Part shown: positions 32,835 to 39,932 of the stretch, piece after piece
Layout of the letters: every line of letters starts with the position of its first letter
How positions within the stretch are numbered: the first letter of the stretch is position 1
Assembly: GCA_965261545.1 (NCBI GenBank)
Contig: CBDHDF010000010.1
Location: 544,001 to 608,000 of the forward strand
Reading direction: 5' to 3'
Length of the DNA stretch: 64,000 nt
DNA from: Bdellovibrionales bacterium
GTDB taxonomy: Bacteria; Bdellovibrionota; Bdellovibrionia; Bdellovibrionales; UBA1609
Translations under genes and position numbers: made by a program
The notes under the pieces: generated by a model
What the model was told of the DNA's origin: nothing
The model's input: only the letters and a program-made list of their open reading frames with translations
Database searches by the model: none

Positions 32835-33722
32835 ATCAATCGTATCAATCGTTTATGGTTAGCTTTTGTTTTCTTCCTTTACTCTTTTGTCGTCACGGCA
32901 TCTCCATCTAACTCAGATAAATACTATGGTCCTTTCTTGGGTCATTTGCTGTATTCTCCACATATGACAAGTGATGAAGTTAGGTCTCACCTCTACAACA
33001 TACTCACAGGAACCCATGTGACTCACTCAGAGGGGGCTCCTGATATGATCTTTACATCTTGCACACCTGAAACATGCGAAATATGTACTGACAGACATTG
33101 TTATCGGCATATAACAAGAGATTATAGAATCACAAAAAGAATTCTCTTTGATATTGATATCAATGAAGATGGCGAGGATTTTTTCTTTCGCAGCTTTTAT
33201 TGCAAATATGATTTTCACTCTAAAGACCACCCCTCAGTGGCTCCGGGAAAAATTCCCAACTCCTTTAAATTAAATGTGGAACACCTATGGCCACAAAGCC
33301 ATTTCTCAAAACAGCAATCTAAAAAAGAACAAAAAAATGATCTCCATCACTTACAAATTGTCAATATGAGAGTGAACTCAACAAGAGGCAATAGAAGATA
33401 TGGTGAAGTTAAGGAAGTTTCAAAACAAATATGTGAGGGTACTTTTCTTGGAAAAGATCAATCTTCCGAAACTATCTTTCAGCCTCGTTTTGAAAATCGA
33501 GGAAATATTGCAAGGAGTCTTTTTTATTTTTCCATCAGATACCAAGTTGAGATCTCCCCGGAAGAGGAAAACTTTCTAAGGAAGTGGCATAGAGAAGATC
33601 CTGTGGATGCACAGGAGCGGGCACGCCATGAAATGATTGCCTTTTCACAAAAAAACCGAAATCCCTTTGTAGATTATCCACAACTAGAAGATAAGATCCT
33701 CAACTTTGGAAGCTCGAAATAA
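32835..33722 (+). CDS. Secreted endonuclease I (EndA/NucM/Bsn) family nuclease
   Basis: NVEHLWPQS, DLHHL, N..RGN, RGNIAR..FY, W...DPVD..E..R, Q.NRNPFVDYP; frame stays open upstream of TTG 32937 through a signal peptide to ATC 32835 behind AAGGAG. Confidence 0.9.
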   Translation: MNRINRLWLAFVFFLYSFVVTASPSNSDKYYGPFLGHLLYSPHMTSDEVRSHLYNILTGTHVTHSEGAPDMIFTSCTPETCEICTDRHCYRHITRDYRITKRILFDIDINEDGEDFFFRSFYCKYDFHSKDHPSVAPGKIPNSFKLNVEHLWPQSHFSKQQSKKEQKNDLHHLQIVNMRVNSTRGNRRYGEVKEVSKQICEGTFLGKDQSSETIFQPRFENRGNIARSLFYFSIRYQVEISPEEENFLRKWHREDPVDAQERARHEMIAFSQKNRNPFVDYPQLEDKILNFGSSK

Positions 33723-33776
33723 AGCTGGTCTTTGATTTTTACTTCTGACTCCTGCTTTGATAACATCTTCATATCC

Positions 33777-33852
33777 GCGCCCCCATGAATGTTACAAACA
33801 TTCATAGTAACATTCATGGGGGCGCCTTGCTTCCCCACCCACGCCCATGAAT
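33777..33852. repeat. REP-like palindrome cluster: perfect 19-bp inverted repeat overlapping copy 2 of the 40-bp repeat
   Basis: GCGCCCCCATGAATGTTAC (33777-95), 11-nt loop, GTAACATTCATGGGGGCGC (33807-25). Confidence 0.9.
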
Positions 33853-34004
33853 CTTTCTAGGCCCCCACTTCTTTGCACGAAGCAACTCGGTGGACAGCTT
33901 CGCTGGTCTATATAATTGGCCTCTTTTAGTTACTCTGGACTTTTGATGGTATTTTTGTCATGTATGATTCCGATACAATAAAGGATAAAGCAATAACATT
34001 ATTG

Positions 34005-34198
34005 GAAGGTGATAAGATGAGTGGCCGTTGAATAGATTGGTAATTTTAATTCCGTGAAGTAACATGGTCTTGAGCTTTGGATCGAACCCACGCATGTACC
34101 TGCACTCTGAGTGTATGGACGTATAGTAAGTTGACCTATTTTCGCTTTAGAATTTATGGCAAAATCCCAAGGCTCTAGTTTTATCACCTTCTTTTTTT
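34005..34198 (+). ncRNA. Predicted IS110 bridge RNA
   Basis: Closing stem GAAGGTGATAA(34005-15)/TTATCACCTTC(34181-91) followed by T7; inner stems GGCCGT/ATGGTC and GAGCTTTGG/CCAAGGCTC; loops contain TGAATAG and ATAGTAA matching the right junction. Confidence 0.65.
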
Positions 34199-34219
34199 CT
34201 AACAGAAAGGAGGAGTCAT

Positions 34220-35422
34220 GTGGATATTATTTATAGTTCTGTTTGTGGAATAGATGTTCATCAACATATGTTGATGTGTACGATTGTCAAAGTGGAAGAC
34301 GGTAAGAAGAAGTTTTTCACAAAAGAGTTCAAGAATTTTCCAAAAAATTTTCCTAGAATGCGCTCTTGGATGAAGCCACATAAGGTTGAGAGAGTTCTTT
34401 TTGAGAGCACAGGGATTTATTGGAATTCTTTATACGATGATTTGACAGAAAAAGGTTATGAAGTAGATGTTATCAATGCCTTTCATGTCAAAAATATTAC
34501 TGGTAAAAAAACTGACGTGTTGGATAGCCAGTGGATTGCAGAGCTTGGTGCTTGTGGTCTTCTAAGAGCTAGCTTCATTCCTCCACGTGAGATTCGTTCT
34601 ATTAGACTTTTGGCTCGTTATCGTACAAAAACGATCCGCCAAATATCTTCGGAACAAAATCGTATGTATAAGGTTCTTGAATATTCAGGCATTCGTTTAA
34701 CCTATGCAATGTCTAAAGCTGACTGCGTATCTGGTATGGCCATGATTCGTGCCATAGCTAATGGAGAGAGATCAGTTTCTAAATTGATGTCTCTTGCCAG
34801 AGGGTCTTTACGTCAAAAGACCGAAGAATTTTCTTACGCCCTGTCGGGAAAGATGACGGAAGAAAATCGTTTTGTTCTTCAACGCATTCTTGATCGAATA
34901 GATTTTTTGAAAAAAGAATGCTCTCAAATTGAAGAAGAACTTTTCATTCGTATGAAACCCTATGAAAGGCAGTGGCATCTACTCCAGACTATACCTGGAA
35001 TTGACGAATTAAGTGCAGCGCTTTTGATTGCAGAAATAGGAGGCAATGTGAAGTCTTTTAAAAATAAAGGAAATTTTTGCTCCTGGATGGGGATTTGCCC
35101 ATCCAATAATGAGAGCGCAGGAAAAAAAAAGTCTTCACGAACGAGGAAAGCGAACACATATGTGAAATCGTTGGTATGTGAGATGGCCAATAGTGCTATT
35201 AAGACGAATTCACAATTCAAAGGCAAATACCAATCACTTGTTATAAGGCGTGGGCACAAGAGATCAGTGATTGCCGTTGGTCACAAAATGATGGGAGTTG
35301 TTTATTCAGTCATAAGTAATGACACCCCCTACAAAGACCCTGGAATTGACTATGAAAAGCTCATGGTGAAAAAAAATGCACCAAGGTGGATTAGAGCGTT
35401 AAAAAAGTATGATTTCATGTAA
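34220..35422 (+). CDS. IS110-family DEDD recombinase/transposase, apparently intact
   Basis: GIDVH, FESTG.YW, KTDVLDS (DEDD); TIPGI, AEIG, W.G.CP..NESAG (catalytic Ser); AGGAGG RBS. Confidence 0.96.
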   Translation: MDIIYSSVCGIDVHQHMLMCTIVKVEDGKKKFFTKEFKNFPKNFPRMRSWMKPHKVERVLFESTGIYWNSLYDDLTEKGYEVDVINAFHVKNITGKKTDVLDSQWIAELGACGLLRASFIPPREIRSIRLLARYRTKTIRQISSEQNRMYKVLEYSGIRLTYAMSKADCVSGMAMIRAIANGERSVSKLMSLARGSLRQKTEEFSYALSGKMTEENRFVLQRILDRIDFLKKECSQIEEELFIRMKPYERQWHLLQTIPGIDELSAALLIAEIGGNVKSFKNKGNFCSWMGICPSNNESAGKKKSSRTRKANTYVKSLVCEMANSAIKTNSQFKGKYQSLVIRRGHKRSVIAVGHKMMGVVYSVISNDTPYKDPGIDYEKLMVKKNAPRWIRALKKYDFM

Positions 35423-35514
35423 TGTAGGATGATTTAAAAACTCGGACATTTGAAAAAATTCGAAGAACGGATAGTGGATTCGTGCGTCCAAACTACCCCG
35501 GAGATTCATAGTAA

Positions 35515-36579
35515 CTATTCATTATCGAGACCTTGATCAATAATGGTCCAGTTTCGAGCGATGAGAGCATTTCGTGCATCCACAGCACTATTGTTGTACT
35601 GTGAATTTCCTCCATGAAACTCAACGTCATCTTGTTGAGAAGTACTGTGAATTTGGTTGAGCAGGTGGCTATACATATCTGTGGGAAGAGTGATGCCTTC
35701 AAGCATGCTTTCCATAGTTGTAACACTGTGAAAATTCCATTGGGCCATATTGGGTTGTGCCACCTGGGCTTCTGAGAATATATTGCTCATGTCTGTGACC
35801 TTGGATGTATCCCAGCGACTGATATCAGGACTGGCAGCTCCTGTATCAGAAAACATATAACTCATATTTGTGACCTTGGATGTATCCCAGAGTCTTACGT
35901 CAGGATTGGCAGTTTCTGTGGAAGAAAACATATAACTCATATTTGTGACATTGGATGTGTCCCAGCGGCTTACGTCGGGATTGGCAGCACCTACATATGA
36001 AAACATATACCCCATGTCTGTGACTTTGGATGTATCCCAATGACTGATCTCAGGACGGACCATTATGGCATTATAAAACATAGAGTTCATGCTTGTGACA
36101 CTAGAGACGTTACCTCCGCTGAGGCTTTCTAAATTCCTACAGCTACTAAAGGCTCTGTTTAAATTTTTCCAACCCACATCACCGAGATCTTTCACAGATA
36201 TGAGTTTAATACTGTATTCGGGGGCAATGTCTTCAAAATTCCAAGCCTCAAGGGTTCCTGAAATGGTCACAGTGTAGTCTCCAGACTCTGCGTAGGTATG
36301 GGTGGTGTCACTGTCATCATGGGTTGTAATTTCGCTGAATGAACCATCTCCCCAATTCACCTTGAAATTATAATTATATCCAGGGGGCAAAGGGAGAACG
36401 ATAGCTTCGTTGTTGTTAGAAGTTCTCCAAATAGAGATAAAAGGAGGAGAGGTAGGACTACTGAAAGAGGATCCATATTGATCTTTTCCATCATTTCCAC
36501 AGCCCAGAAAATTAATGCTGGTGAGACAAATGATAATTAAAGAAAAAGTCCATTTTTTAAAAAATTTTAATTGAATCAT
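35515..36579 (-). CDS. DUF285/BspA-like surface lipoprotein with PKD-like domain
   Basis: Lipobox FLGC, V.WGDG..HTY..SG.YTVTISG, five to six 25-aa repeats WDTSKVT.MSYMFS. Confidence 0.9.
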   Translation of the reverse strand: MIQLKFFKKWTFSLIIICLTSINFLGCGNDGKDQYGSSFSSPTSPPFISIWRTSNNNEAIVLPLPPGYNYNFKVNWGDGSFSEITTHDDSDTTHTYAESGDYTVTISGTLEAWNFEDIAPEYSIKLISVKDLGDVGWKNLNRAFSSCRNLESLSGGNVSSVTSMNSMFYNAIMVRPEISHWDTSKVTDMGYMFSYVGAANPDVSRWDTSNVTNMSYMFSSTETANPDVRLWDTSKVTNMSYMFSDTGAASPDISRWDTSKVTDMSNIFSEAQVAQPNMAQWNFHSVTTMESMLEGITLPTDMYSHLLNQIHSTSQQDDVEFHGGNSQYNNSAVDARNALIARNWTIIDQGLDNE

Positions 36580-37378: not shown

Positions 37379-39932
37379 CAATGGCATTCGTTTAGTGAGA
37401 GATCCCATTCGGTTAAGGATTTGAACCTCTAACTCCTCGGGGGTGGGCTAACCCCAAGTTTTTTTCTTTGATCCATGTGATTATCCGTTGGCCATAGCCC
37501 CCCTAACCTCTTTACTGGGTCTCCATACTCCGATGGGTTTTCTAGAAACTCGGTCGTAATGCCTATTCGGACGTAGCCTTTGTCGGCAGGTCTTCATATT
37601 TGTAATGATGCAATTGAGGGTTTTACTAAGCACTACCTTTTGTTGAAGAAAAAGACCTTCAATATTTCTTGCAATTGTCAGTAAATTGTTTTTAAAGTTT
37701 GTCTGCATGGTTTGTTTTTTACTATGGGATTGAGATGTATTAAGACGGTCTTCCGTGTAGTTGGAAAATAATCTTGTCAGAGTGATAAGTGTGAAGTGTG
37801 CAAACAATTCTTGTTTGACTCCCCTTTCACTTTGAGAATGAAACTCTTCAATGGTCATCAGTTCTTTGGATATTTTGTACAGTTCCTCTATACTCCAGCG
37901 TCCATGATAGAGATTGGCCAGATCATCAATGGAATATTTTTTTTGATCCATTAAGGTTGTTCCTAGAACAAAAGTAGTTTGTCCAATTTTATATTTGACC
38001 AAACGCAAAGCGTAGGCTTTGAAGTCGTCTTGTGGCTTTTTTTTATGTAGTTCTTTCAGAATTTGCTTGCTAGAAATGACTTGGATCACTGAGTCTTTTT
38101 GATCATTATTAATAAATTCATCAAAAACAGTGTTGGCATTTCTCCTTATCCTAAACACCGCATGCAGACTTCGCACCTTATGCTCATGAAGCATTTCGTA
38201 GGAATAATAGCCACGATCATAAACCACAACATCGTTTTCAAACAATTTTTTGAAATGAGTTTGTGCAGCCTTTCTCTCATTGTTATGGGCAAAGAGATCA
38301 AAATCCACAGGAATCTTCGACTGTAGTTGGTACAGGCAACTGACAAGACCTTGAGGGTACCATGCTTTTTCCCATGGTTGCTGATACCCATTATCTACGA
38401 GTTGACGTGGTAAATTTATTTTCGATCCATCCACTGCGAAAACCTTATGGCCCTTCCATAAGGTACTAGAATTGGATATACCGTCTTGTTTAAGAATTTC
38501 ATCATGCAAAACTTTAAATATATTTTCATCTACTTTAGCCCGTGCACTACACATAGTGGATGCCCGAACTGGTTTAGGTTGAGGGAGTTCAATGTCTAAT
38601 ATGCGACACTGCTCCCAAAGTTCAATCAAAGTTGTATCATAACCTTGTTTTCCTTTAGAGAAAACAAGTCGGAAGATGAAAAGTATAATCAACAATGTAT
38701 TCAAGACACGTTGACGCTTTTGCCAGGTTCGGTCGTACTCATCTGCAATGATAACCACTGTCTTGATGATGTTTTGCCAAAGATGCACAAAAGAGTCCTC
38801 TAGCATAGGCTCAGCCAAGTTCTTATGTGGCTTGATGGTGGGTTTCCCGACGGGTTTCTTGATAGCGCATTGGGGGCCATTCAATAAGATAGACTGATAA
38901 TTCTTTGTCAGAGGTTGAACATAAACACCTTTTTGAGTTTTTCCCTTTACATTTTTGTAGGCACGACTCCCATTTGTTTTGCCCAAATAAAGCCAGTTGG
39001 CAGCACGATAGCTCGTGGCATTAAATTTGGTAAGGTCGACAAAAGTCTCCATGAGTACAGGTTTGAAAGCATGTTTTAACTCCCAGTCTGTGGGAAGTTG
39101 GCGAGTTGCCATAGATAAAGCCATCGAAGCAAGATGGCGAACCTTTACCCAGGGAAAGATCAAAAATCGACTATTGTTCACCACTAAATTCAAGTGCTTT
39201 TTGTAAGCTCGATTTTGCCAACCGATCCATTCATCACGGCAAGGCAACGTGGATGTGCCAGCTTCAAATAAAAGACAACCCAATCTTCGCCCACAATTAT
39301 CTAAGATGAAATAGCGTAAGTGGGGACCAAAGGGACGTCTGTAATTGAGATAATGATGCCGATCGACAACTTCATTCCATTCCTTAATGGCCTCTTGATC
39401 AGTTACGATTTGCAAAGAAAGTGGGGTCAATGAGTCTAGTTTATCGTTGATGAGAGGCTTTTCATCTGTTCGGTGTGTCCAAGTGATTTTTTTGGAGGGG
39501 ACACTCCGCTTTGACATGTCTTTTTCTGGCAGGGATAGAATGTCAAGTTCCTCTAGCGTCTCAAGCATACGAAGGCACGATTGGATGCGATGATCACCTT
39601 TGGGAGTTAGCCAACCAAGATGCTCACAAACTGTATAACCCAGTTCACGGCGACTTAAAGAAGGAAATAGCGCCACCGTCTTTTGAATGTCGGCAATTTG
39701 CTTGCGCGTCAAGCGTCTTCCAAAAAAAGTTGTTGAAGGCAATGTCTCTATGCGTGGGTCCATTTGAGTCTCTCCCCTTTGGGAATGGTTCAAATATAAT
39801 GTGACACAACGATGGGGTGGACTCAAGTATTTTTTTTCGGAAAAAGAAAAAAGATAAAAGCCCCCTTAACTCAGTATGTTAGAGGGAGTCAGAAAAATGT
39901 GGAAAAATCTTCTGCAAAAACGAATGCCATTG
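37379..39932 (-). mobile_element. Complete IS4-family element, 2554 bp
   Basis: Perfect 15-bp TIRs CAATGGCATTCGTTT / AAACGAATGCCATTG; 10-bp TSD CCCCGCCGCC at 37369-78 and 39933-42. Confidence 0.93.
37481..39763 (-). CDS. DUF4338 (DruA-like) domain fused to IS4-family DDE transposase
   Basis: N-terminal HHYL.Y...G..LRY, RDEWIGW, NNSRFLI.PWV...LAS..L, ETFVD...YRAANW...G.T; C-terminal AVDGS, VYDRGY, Y..RW.IE..YK..K; start at ATG 39763 behind GGAGAG. Confidence 0.9.
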   Translation of the reverse strand: MDPRIETLPSTTFFGRRLTRKQIADIQKTVALFPSLSRRELGYTVCEHLGWLTPKGDHRIQSCLRMLETLEELDILSLPEKDMSKRSVPSKKITWTHRTDEKPLINDKLDSLTPLSLQIVTDQEAIKEWNEVVDRHHYLNYRRPFGPHLRYFILDNCGRRLGCLLFEAGTSTLPCRDEWIGWQNRAYKKHLNLVVNNSRFLIFPWVKVRHLASMALSMATRQLPTDWELKHAFKPVLMETFVDLTKFNATSYRAANWLYLGKTNGSRAYKNVKGKTQKGVYVQPLTKNYQSILLNGPQCAIKKPVGKPTIKPHKNLAEPMLEDSFVHLWQNIIKTVVIIADEYDRTWQKRQRVLNTLLIILFIFRLVFSKGKQGYDTTLIELWEQCRILDIELPQPKPVRASTMCSARAKVDENIFKVLHDEILKQDGISNSSTLWKGHKVFAVDGSKINLPRQLVDNGYQQPWEKAWYPQGLVSCLYQLQSKIPVDFDLFAHNNERKAAQTHFKKLFENDVVVYDRGYYSYEMLHEHKVRSLHAVFRIRRNANTVFDEFINNDQKDSVIQVISSKQILKELHKKKPQDDFKAYALRLVKYKIGQTTFVLGTTLMDQKKYSIDDLANLYHGRWSIEELYKISKELMTIEEFHSQSERGVKQELFAHFTLITLTRLFSNYTEDRLNTSQSHSKKQTMQTNFKNNLLTIARNIEGLFLQQKVVLSKTLNCIITNMKTCRQRLRPNRHYDRVSRKPIGVWRPSKEVRGAMANG

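Follow-up and report, generated by a model that had tools for sequence, protein, structure and literature searches.

The closest described systems to the element treated here are IS621 and ISCro4 (IS622), in which, as here, a recombinase with DEDD and Tnp domains is accompanied by a 5' non-coding bridge RNA with two loops (PMC11208160, PMC11208158), and in which the target is built as 7+2+2 bases, with a dinucleotide core that has T at position 9 and with handshake guides. Reversed guide order has been described for the RNAs of the IS1111 type (PMC11187229). For CazIS110-1 and IS621, top-strand-only excision, single-stranded circles and a usable single-stranded donor are reported (10.1101/2025.10.25.684509; 10.64898/2026.08.31.748434). 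Whether the circles of IS110 elements are single- or double-stranded, and whether one strand or both are exchanged, is disputed (10.64898/2026.08.31.748434, 10.1101/2025.10.25.684509, PMC13626964).

We have taken up one IS110 element, found in a window of 64,000 nucleotides (the whole stretch of a Bdellovibrionales contig that was analysed), and have asked one question of it: with what does its left donor guide pair? In IS621 the guides pair with opposite strands of the duplex junction; here the left donor guide matches a site of its own sense inside the left end. That arrangement is an unexpected, clade-wide donor architecture within the IS110 family and is what is new here; reversed guide order and the targeting of transposon ends were already known.

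The element, its RNA and its target

The recombinase reading frame matches PF01548 and PF02371 in a domain search and the IS110 model NF033542 with 245 bits (cut-off 140), and the DEDD and catalytic Ser signature of the family is there, the residues D12, E62, D99, D102 and S299 all being present. Twenty-five full-length copies, plus fragments, lie in the genome, and 24 of them have the same bridge RNA. Every right end finishes in ATAGTAA, and the genome copies have an AA core at both junctions and no longer target duplication. One off-target copy, inside the recombinase gene, starts with TTAA, as its target does, so GT belongs to the target, which leaves AA (TT on the minus strand) as the core. 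The first-pass annotation had suggested a different, AA/TT-like core; AA/TT it is, though not new in kind, since IS621 accepts a TT core, with only the second T near-invariant (PMC11208158). That annotation ran the element from 33990 to 35521, with the right junction correctly placed and the left end, at 33807-33811, outside; its extent in the window is 33811-35514, with 409 bp of non-coding DNA upstream of the gene and 92 bp downstream. Eight right-end/left-end junctions of tandem copies have the sequence of the circle junction; no circle joint was seen in the contigs, where its absence would carry no weight. Judged by sequence, this is a real, high-copy and recently active IS110 bridge recombinase.

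Several searches came back empty: a promoter scan for a plus-strand sigma-70 promoter in the linear sequence 33700-35600, a scan for a terminator by its own rule, a single-protein locus scan, a search of 400 genomes of the phylum at E 1e-90, a plasmid search at E 1e-80, and Rfam, which has no match near the gathering score in the region upstream of the recombinase frame. As a test for a single-stranded step, orientation was set against GC skew: the counts are 13 of 24 in the element's own genome, where the skew is scrambled, and 39 of 59 in genome G429 (34 of 54 with neighbours merged, p 0.08), where it was taken from twenty 20-kb samples.

Features of the element and its surroundings (positions in the window)
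Feature	Positions	Strand	Basis
Older nest left of the element: inverted 19-bp left-end copy (33777-95), then right-end remnant of a mini-element (33796-806)	33777..33806	.	
Left junction GTAA: two target-derived bases and AA core (TT on minus strand)	33807..33810	+	GTAA in 41/46 left ends (short derivatives counted)
Junction left-donor arm LD, ATGAATG on minus strand	33811..33817	-	Two core-proximal bases match target-loop handshake guide
Spacer hairpin, GGGG/CCCC stem	33818..33836	.	Stems compensatory in homologues
Internal site LD' (ACCCACGCC)	33837..33845	+	Same sense as left donor guide (7/7, 8/9)
Left subterminal inverted repeat ATGAATCT	33847..33854	+	Perfect inverse of 35502-09
Predicted bridge RNA, ~195 nt, closed by 11-bp stem and T7 run	34004..34198	+	Predicted ends
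Left target guide TGAATAG	34029..34035	+	Exact reverse complement of 16/35 right flanks
Right target guide (GTAA paired; 34059-62) and handshake guide CA (34063-64)	34054..34064	+	
Left donor guide ACCCACG-CA	34086..34094	+	Both loops share one symmetric register
Right donor guide (ATAGTAA, 34123-29) and handshake guide GT	34121..34131	+	
IS110 DEDD recombinase, 400 aa, intact in the window copy	34220..35422	+	Domain and motif matches
Right end: subterminal repeat AGATTCAT, right donor arm AGT, AA core	35502..35514	+	
Left target arm TGAATAG, in this copy the final codons and TAG stop of a DUF285 gene; most of the other on-target copies have an IS66-type terminal repeat there	35515..35521	-	

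The letters on which the first-pass annotation rested (the closing stem, 34005-15/34181-91, and the seven T at 34192-98; the TGAATAG and ATAGTAA of the two loops; the junction ATAGTAA/CTATTCA at 35508-21) stand where it placed them, and GTGAAGTAAC lies at 34054-63, within loop 1; the chance expectation for each 7-mer match in the 221-nt region is ~0.03. Its fold fared less simply. Folded alone, the RNA has a z of -2.1 and a minimum-energy structure that pairs loop 1 differently, with the two-loop fold 4 kcal/mol above it; the two-loop stems do covary in homologues. In an alignment of the element's own 5' region with 31 homologous ones, 86.7% of stem cells are paired, against 68.3% when shuffled and at most 47% with partners slid, and 21 of the 24 stem pairs show compensatory change across the 32 sequences. 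These figures lean towards the structure, because RNAalifold had drawn 15 of the pairs from this very alignment and the other 9 were placed by hand. With the domain matches and these covarying stems, the gene is an IS110 gene and the predicted 5' bridge RNA is real, as had been proposed.

For the guides we fetched 160 homologous loci, and of 153 upstream regions 48 gave a profile match to the RNA; 40 loci yielded a donor loop and 36 a left end, which became 28 distinct elements, one guide of them hand-corrected, after 8 copies of the same element were dropped. The two loops are symmetric: each runs through nine bases to a conserved T and an inner stem, followed by G-N6-AA and a pair of handshake bases. 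The target-loop handshake bases equal the first two left-end bases in 28/28 elements (permuted mean 8.9), so the left junction is correctly placed; the pair of bases just ahead of AA is the same as in the left flank in 26/28; and the right donor guide equals the right end at 7/7 in 23/25, a count that favours agreement, the end motif having been picked among candidates by best match. A correct junction, together with the symmetry of the loops, puts the left donor guide at 34086-94. These junction and handshake matches bear out the claim that the guide order relative to the reading frame is reversed compared with IS621. TGAATAG, the left target guide, is kept in a relative whose neighbouring bases differ.

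Loop 1 is target-binding and loop 2 donor-binding, as first read, for the guides match the junctions of genome copies and homologues. The predicted RNA is structured, and its target guides match insertion sites. Of the 35 right junctions in the genome, 15 enter a terminal repeat, GTAACTATTCAG, and the one in the window enters the same 7-mer at the stop codon of the DUF285 gene (35515-36579, minus strand), which is left whole; 8 run directly into another copy's left end, and 11 lie elsewhere, among them two near matches and two that reach a left end by way of a right-end fragment. The first-pass annotation had staked its reading on the sites of the other copies, and 16 of these 35 junctions continue with CTATTCA. 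Only the last four bases are conserved among 30 distinct left flanks. Elements occupy 15 of 33 GTAACTATTCAG ends; the genome also has 14 variant (GTAT-type) ends, which have no AA core, and not one right flank of the 35 enters their common body. Right junctions, left flanks and variant ends together make the target TGAATAG-TT-AC on the minus strand, as the earlier reading had it, and this is the 11-bp tip of IS66-type terminal inverted repeats. The repeat GTAACTATTCAG ends a 1715-bp IS66 element and several other elements; the host element has a transposase that matches NF033517 with 285 bits (cut-off 180), terminal inverted repeats, 8-bp duplications and a length of 1714-1715 bp, and it may belong to the ISBst12 group.

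Since the element's own right end closes with GTAA as well, a perfect target is restored at every insertion and the IS66 end stays whole, which would also explain the tandem copies. This homing into IS66 ends, with a target that renews itself, is a smaller addition to the cases in which one element homes into another's ends. In two multi-copy relatives the right target guide fits two flank bases in 16/16 and 11/12 cases, and the match of the left target arm is loose. We had thought of the left end as a captured IS66 mini-element and dropped the idea, the homologues sharing the same left-end layout; its resemblance to IS66 may be mimicry. Also present are three short derivatives that carry 8-bp duplications. 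Neither the IS66-repeat nature of the target nor the internal match of the left donor guide was in the first-pass annotation.

The left donor guide and the site inside the left end

In the correct register, the left donor guide agrees with the junction arm ATGAATG at 3/7 positions, and with the internal site, at 33837-43, at 7/7 and in the same sense. Across the 28 distinct elements the mean match is 5.9/7 at the internal site against 1.9/7 at the junction arm. The five variable guide positions agree with the internal site 97 times in 140 (76.6 +/- 3.7 when permuted), and when only the 12 distinct guides are counted the figures are 42 and 29.9, with p 2.6e-4; the homologues are related, so the p-values overstate. 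A held-out set was drawn from 104 other loci, of which 77 had the internal repeat motif and 27 had none in range, leaving 67 distinct elements, and it was scored blind to register, the internal site being set against the best candidate guide in its own or in another RNA. The mean is 5.46 for the own RNA and 4.37 for others; 32/67 reach at least 6/7 with their own, compared with 10% of cross pairs; and the sum is 366, the permutation maximum being 325. A comparison with the nearest relative that has a different guide (68 to 16) we set aside as biased by construction.

The fit is uneven. In the first set the guide does not vary at positions 2-4, and at position 6 no more than 13/28 elements match; L021 and L026 fit at 4/9 and L017 at 3/7, and 19 of 100 elements are at 4/7 or less. 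The asymmetry of wobble pairs favours the minus strand in the first set, essentially at one position, and is mixed in the held-out set (13 against 7 among 30 single mismatches). Even so, covariation shows that the left donor guide corresponds to LD' and not to the junction arm, and we hold it very probable that the two pair in some role. The two donor guides share plus-strand sense, and the minus ("top") strand is therefore the only one with which either can pair.

Around this site the left ends of the clade have one order: core, LD (7-8 nt), a hairpin, LD' (9-10 nt), one base, and an inverted repeat of the right end. LD' starts 20 to 27 bases inside the left end; in the window element the site lies about 30 bases in, and the subterminal repeats, 8 bp long, stand at 36 bp and 3 bp from the cores. 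Hairpin sequences differ between elements, but the pairing persists: 101/140 pairs are Watson-Crick in the first set (39 shuffled, 59 between elements), and in the held-out set the count is 58/67, with 23 shuffled. The left repeat matches the right end at 6/7 or 7/7 in 25/25 elements, and in 39/58 of the held-out ones (9 shuffled), with compensatory variants. Four mini-elements of ~105 bp in the same genome have kept the hairpin, a near-intact LD' and a compensated repeat pair. The layout can be seen by eye in named isolates of Alicyclobacillus, Bacillus and Comamonas; at a Streptomyces locus, L216, the left end was not recognised.

A proposed folded single strand as donor

What would a guide do with a copy of itself placed well inside the left end? 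We argue that the donor is probably a single strand folded back on itself and inserted by single-strand transfer. The minus strand of the excised circle would fold back at the junction, the spacer hairpin forming the outer left arm and the two subterminal repeats the outer right arm, so that LD' would come to lie opposite LD, to which it is not complementary, and would replace the missing bottom strand in a bubble opened in advance. The donor loop would bind LD' and the core with RD, and after exchange the handshake guide would catch LD positions 6-7. Only the top strand would be transferred, because cutting the stand-in strand would scramble the end, and replication would fix the insertion. 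So folded, the minus strand at the circle junction would have the donor arrangement of IS621 with its bubble ready; the structures of IS621 formed only with mismatches engineered at those positions (PMC11208158). On its own, the junction strand has little tendency to fold (z -0.5 against dinucleotide shuffles), LD' is buried in the best fold, and the fold-back bubble, 10 nt against 12, is two bases short of the IS621 geometry. IS621 is also reported to excise on half matches (10.64898/2026.08.31.748434), so that the element may be able to dispense altogether with a matched left donor arm.

The same covariation of guide and LD' would be seen if the pairing took place on double-stranded DNA, with a hairpin or cruciform extruded at the left end only inside the excision complex, and with the circle then integrating as a duplex by exchange of both strands or on half a match. 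When LD' is kept unpaired, the best fold of the element's strand joins the repeat to LD and leaves LD' as a 9-nt bulge, a form that could arise at a linear left end without the right end; CAT or CAC stands before 38 of 48 perfect stems. The extrusion reading gives no reason for the 6-10 bp of complementarity between the internal and the right-end repeat, or for their changing together, and a duplex circle would present no guide-matched bottom strand at the junction. We regard this reading as unlikely, if the most serious of the alternatives.

Or LD' might be a site apart, regulatory or tethering (for promoter control, say, or for a second donor-loop complex), the repeats being bound by protein as in IS1111, the hairpin acting in RNA, and recombination proceeding through the right donor guide and handshake only. 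Half-match recombination and recombination between donor loops are reported for IS621 (10.64898/2026.08.31.748434), IS1111 has subterminal repeats 7 and 3 bp from its ends (PMC11187229), and one genome copy sits in DNA that encodes another copy's right donor guide, with a match of the right arm only. A free-standing site, however, would not need a fixed register, and the hairpin directly between LD and LD', with the repeat one base after LD', sets LD' opposite LD in 36/36 parsed left ends, in a parse that imposed the 9+1 spacing; we give this reading little credence.

That the match is a relic of duplication or shared ancestry, with no pairing, in an ordinary IS110 element whose left donor guide has decayed, would suit the constancy of ACCC in the closer relatives and the poor fit of some elements, and is improbable in view of the distant ones, where guide and site have changed jointly (ACAACGA in L050, L060 and L144; ACCAATC in L137; ACCACC in L143 and L157); an element's own RNA also beats that of its nearest relative 37 to 13 (100 distinct elements, 50 tied), across proteins 31-48% identical to the query. 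The canonical duplex donor of the first-pass annotation, ACGCATG-TT-ACTAT, is almost certainly wrong: its register gives 5/7 against the true arm in one element, but it is three bases off that of the target loop, every left end in the genome gives ATGAATG and none ACGCATG, and guide and junction arm agree as poorly as stated above in the 28 elements.

Relation to known systems

In the running text of mostly open-access papers we found no description of same-strand donor guides, of a fold-back donor or of targeting to IS66 ends (10.64898/2026.08.14.744561, 10.1101/2025.05.14.653916, 10.1101/2024.06.21.599552, PMC3971601, PMC13604230 and PMC13626964 were among those covered), and no ISfinder name that shares the clade motifs is among the matches listed in the IS110 tree table (PMC11208160 supplement, 13 places per term). 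The largest covariation survey (10.64898/2026.10.21.760802), as far as its open text goes, takes ~25 donor bases on each side of the core, and its clusters could include the clade; with LD' 20 to 27 bases inside, such a window largely excludes it, and screens of this kind could miss these enzymes or fail on them. For this clade, a donor site reconstructed from nothing but the junction is incomplete. A donor end that makes sense only as a folded single strand would offer the strand dispute a natural and directly testable case and, if the reading is true, a programmable recombinase suited to single-stranded donors.

Compared with IS621 and ISCro4, the protein here (400 aa) is distant (E 3e-15 and 2e-13), the guides are reversed relative to the reading frame, and the donor loop has an extra hairpin. 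As in IS621, the right donor guide pairs with the core and right donor arm, and the target-loop handshake guide matches donor positions 6-7 in every one of the 28 elements; unlike IS621, the left donor guide has no more than the 3/7 given above (1.9/7 on average) for the bottom strand beside the core, and the left donor arm is in the left end, not the right. In IS621 the junction also forms the promoter; here the scan of 33700-35600 gave no plus-strand sigma-70 site.

With the IS1111 group, IS4321 and IS5075 included, the element shares guide polarity, a subterminal inverted repeat 3 bp from the right end (PMC11187229) and a multi-loop donor arm (PMC11208160). It differs in having its RNA upstream, where that of IS1111 is downstream, in its longer protein, and in a left repeat 36 bp inside instead of 7; nor is the long non-coding region downstream, and there are no repeats of 11-13 bp at 7 and 3 bp from the ends. 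IS4321 and IS5075 reportedly also target another transposon's terminal repeat, the target here being an IS66 end and not a Tn21 end.

A DNA hairpin takes part in recognition in ISPpu10 as well (10.64898/2026.03.19.712850); there it lies in the target and raises efficiency, and the donor guides pair with opposite junction strands. CazIS110-1 (10.1101/2025.10.25.684509) and IS621 excision (10.64898/2026.08.31.748434) supply the chemistry that the fold-back model needs, top-strand-only excision and transfer with a single-stranded circle as donor, with guides that pair at the junctions and, in the open text of these reports, no folded donor.

We incline, then, to the view that a broad clade of IS110 enzymes of ~400 aa, spread over many bacterial groups, may be built for single-stranded transposition, its bridge RNA reading both donor guides on one folded strand: an RNA-guided counterpart of integron-type recombination that would take single-stranded cargo bounded by short ends (~45 and 13 bases) and, in a single strand transfer, insert it into a double-stranded target that can be programmed. 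Integron attC cassettes, the CTX phage with XerCD, and IS200/IS605 all use a folded single-stranded substrate, the exchange of one strand and completion by replication; they do so with tyrosine or HUH enzymes and without RNA guides, and the likeness is one of working, not of kinship.

Make-up of the left end and its shortened forms

Because 65 bp within it are about 95% shared with another repeated element, one present at dozens of sites, the left end of the IS110 element is a mosaic and exceeds those of its relatives in length. Three left ends are truncated 1–3 bases past LD′, the internal site matching the left donor guide, and these could record cuts at the stand-in strand (LD′ in place of the missing bottom strand of the proposed folded donor) or simply chance. 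Four mini-elements without a gene join the left-end hairpin to a variant right end; two are followed by a TIR-like CTGCTCAGGGGG flank, and the other two directly precede a full or partial copy of the element. These mini-elements suggest what the minimal ends are, and mobilization in trans.

Locations of the features in the window and in the element's own genome (G000, contigs C2–C11)
Feature	Location	Detail
Shared segment of left end	window 33889-33953	65 bp
Truncated left ends	C6:183450, C7:89102, C11:1052984	
Mini-elements	C2:233621(-), C3:20865, C6:3544, C11:725859	~105 bp
Left-end derivatives	C2:618569-618619, C6:99928-99978, C10:204619-204662	44-51 bp
Insertion into own copy	C10:1020986 and 1009942	
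A run	near window 35122	9 A
DUF285/PKD lipoprotein gene	window 35515-36579	large paralogue family
Fusion transposase	window 37481-39826	781 aa, DruA (DUF4338) + DDE_Tnp_1
Other IS66-capped elements	C2:85471, C6:289778, C2:63263	

The recombinase gene, its copies and their surroundings

The A run in the recombinase gene has 9 bases in 14 copies, 8 bases in 3 copies and 7 bases, a frameshifted form, in 18; many of the shortened runs may be assembly errors, since the main contig of run X1 carries the intact form. Three database homologues (P0005, P0006 and P0015) are broken at the same A run. One copy is joined into DNA encoding the right donor guide of another, which is self-targeting through a right-arm match, and further copies have gone into the gene or the left end of the element itself. 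In the window, the element lies immediately beyond the stop codon of the lipoprotein gene, which stays intact; a fusion transposase is also encoded there. Along the large contigs of the genome, the GC skew switches sign repeatedly, a pattern that fits either extensive rearrangement in a genome rich in IS elements or misjoins in the assembly.

The left end and IS66-type repeats

Elements with different contents, too, end in the IS66-type terminal repeat: IS4-like and IS91-like genes (judged by eye) and short noncoding units. The short left-end derivatives are bounded by inverted GTAAC and flanked by perfect 8-bp target duplications, the kind made by IS66. The left end may serve as an IS66 terminal repeat, and composites of IS110 and IS66 might therefore move as one.
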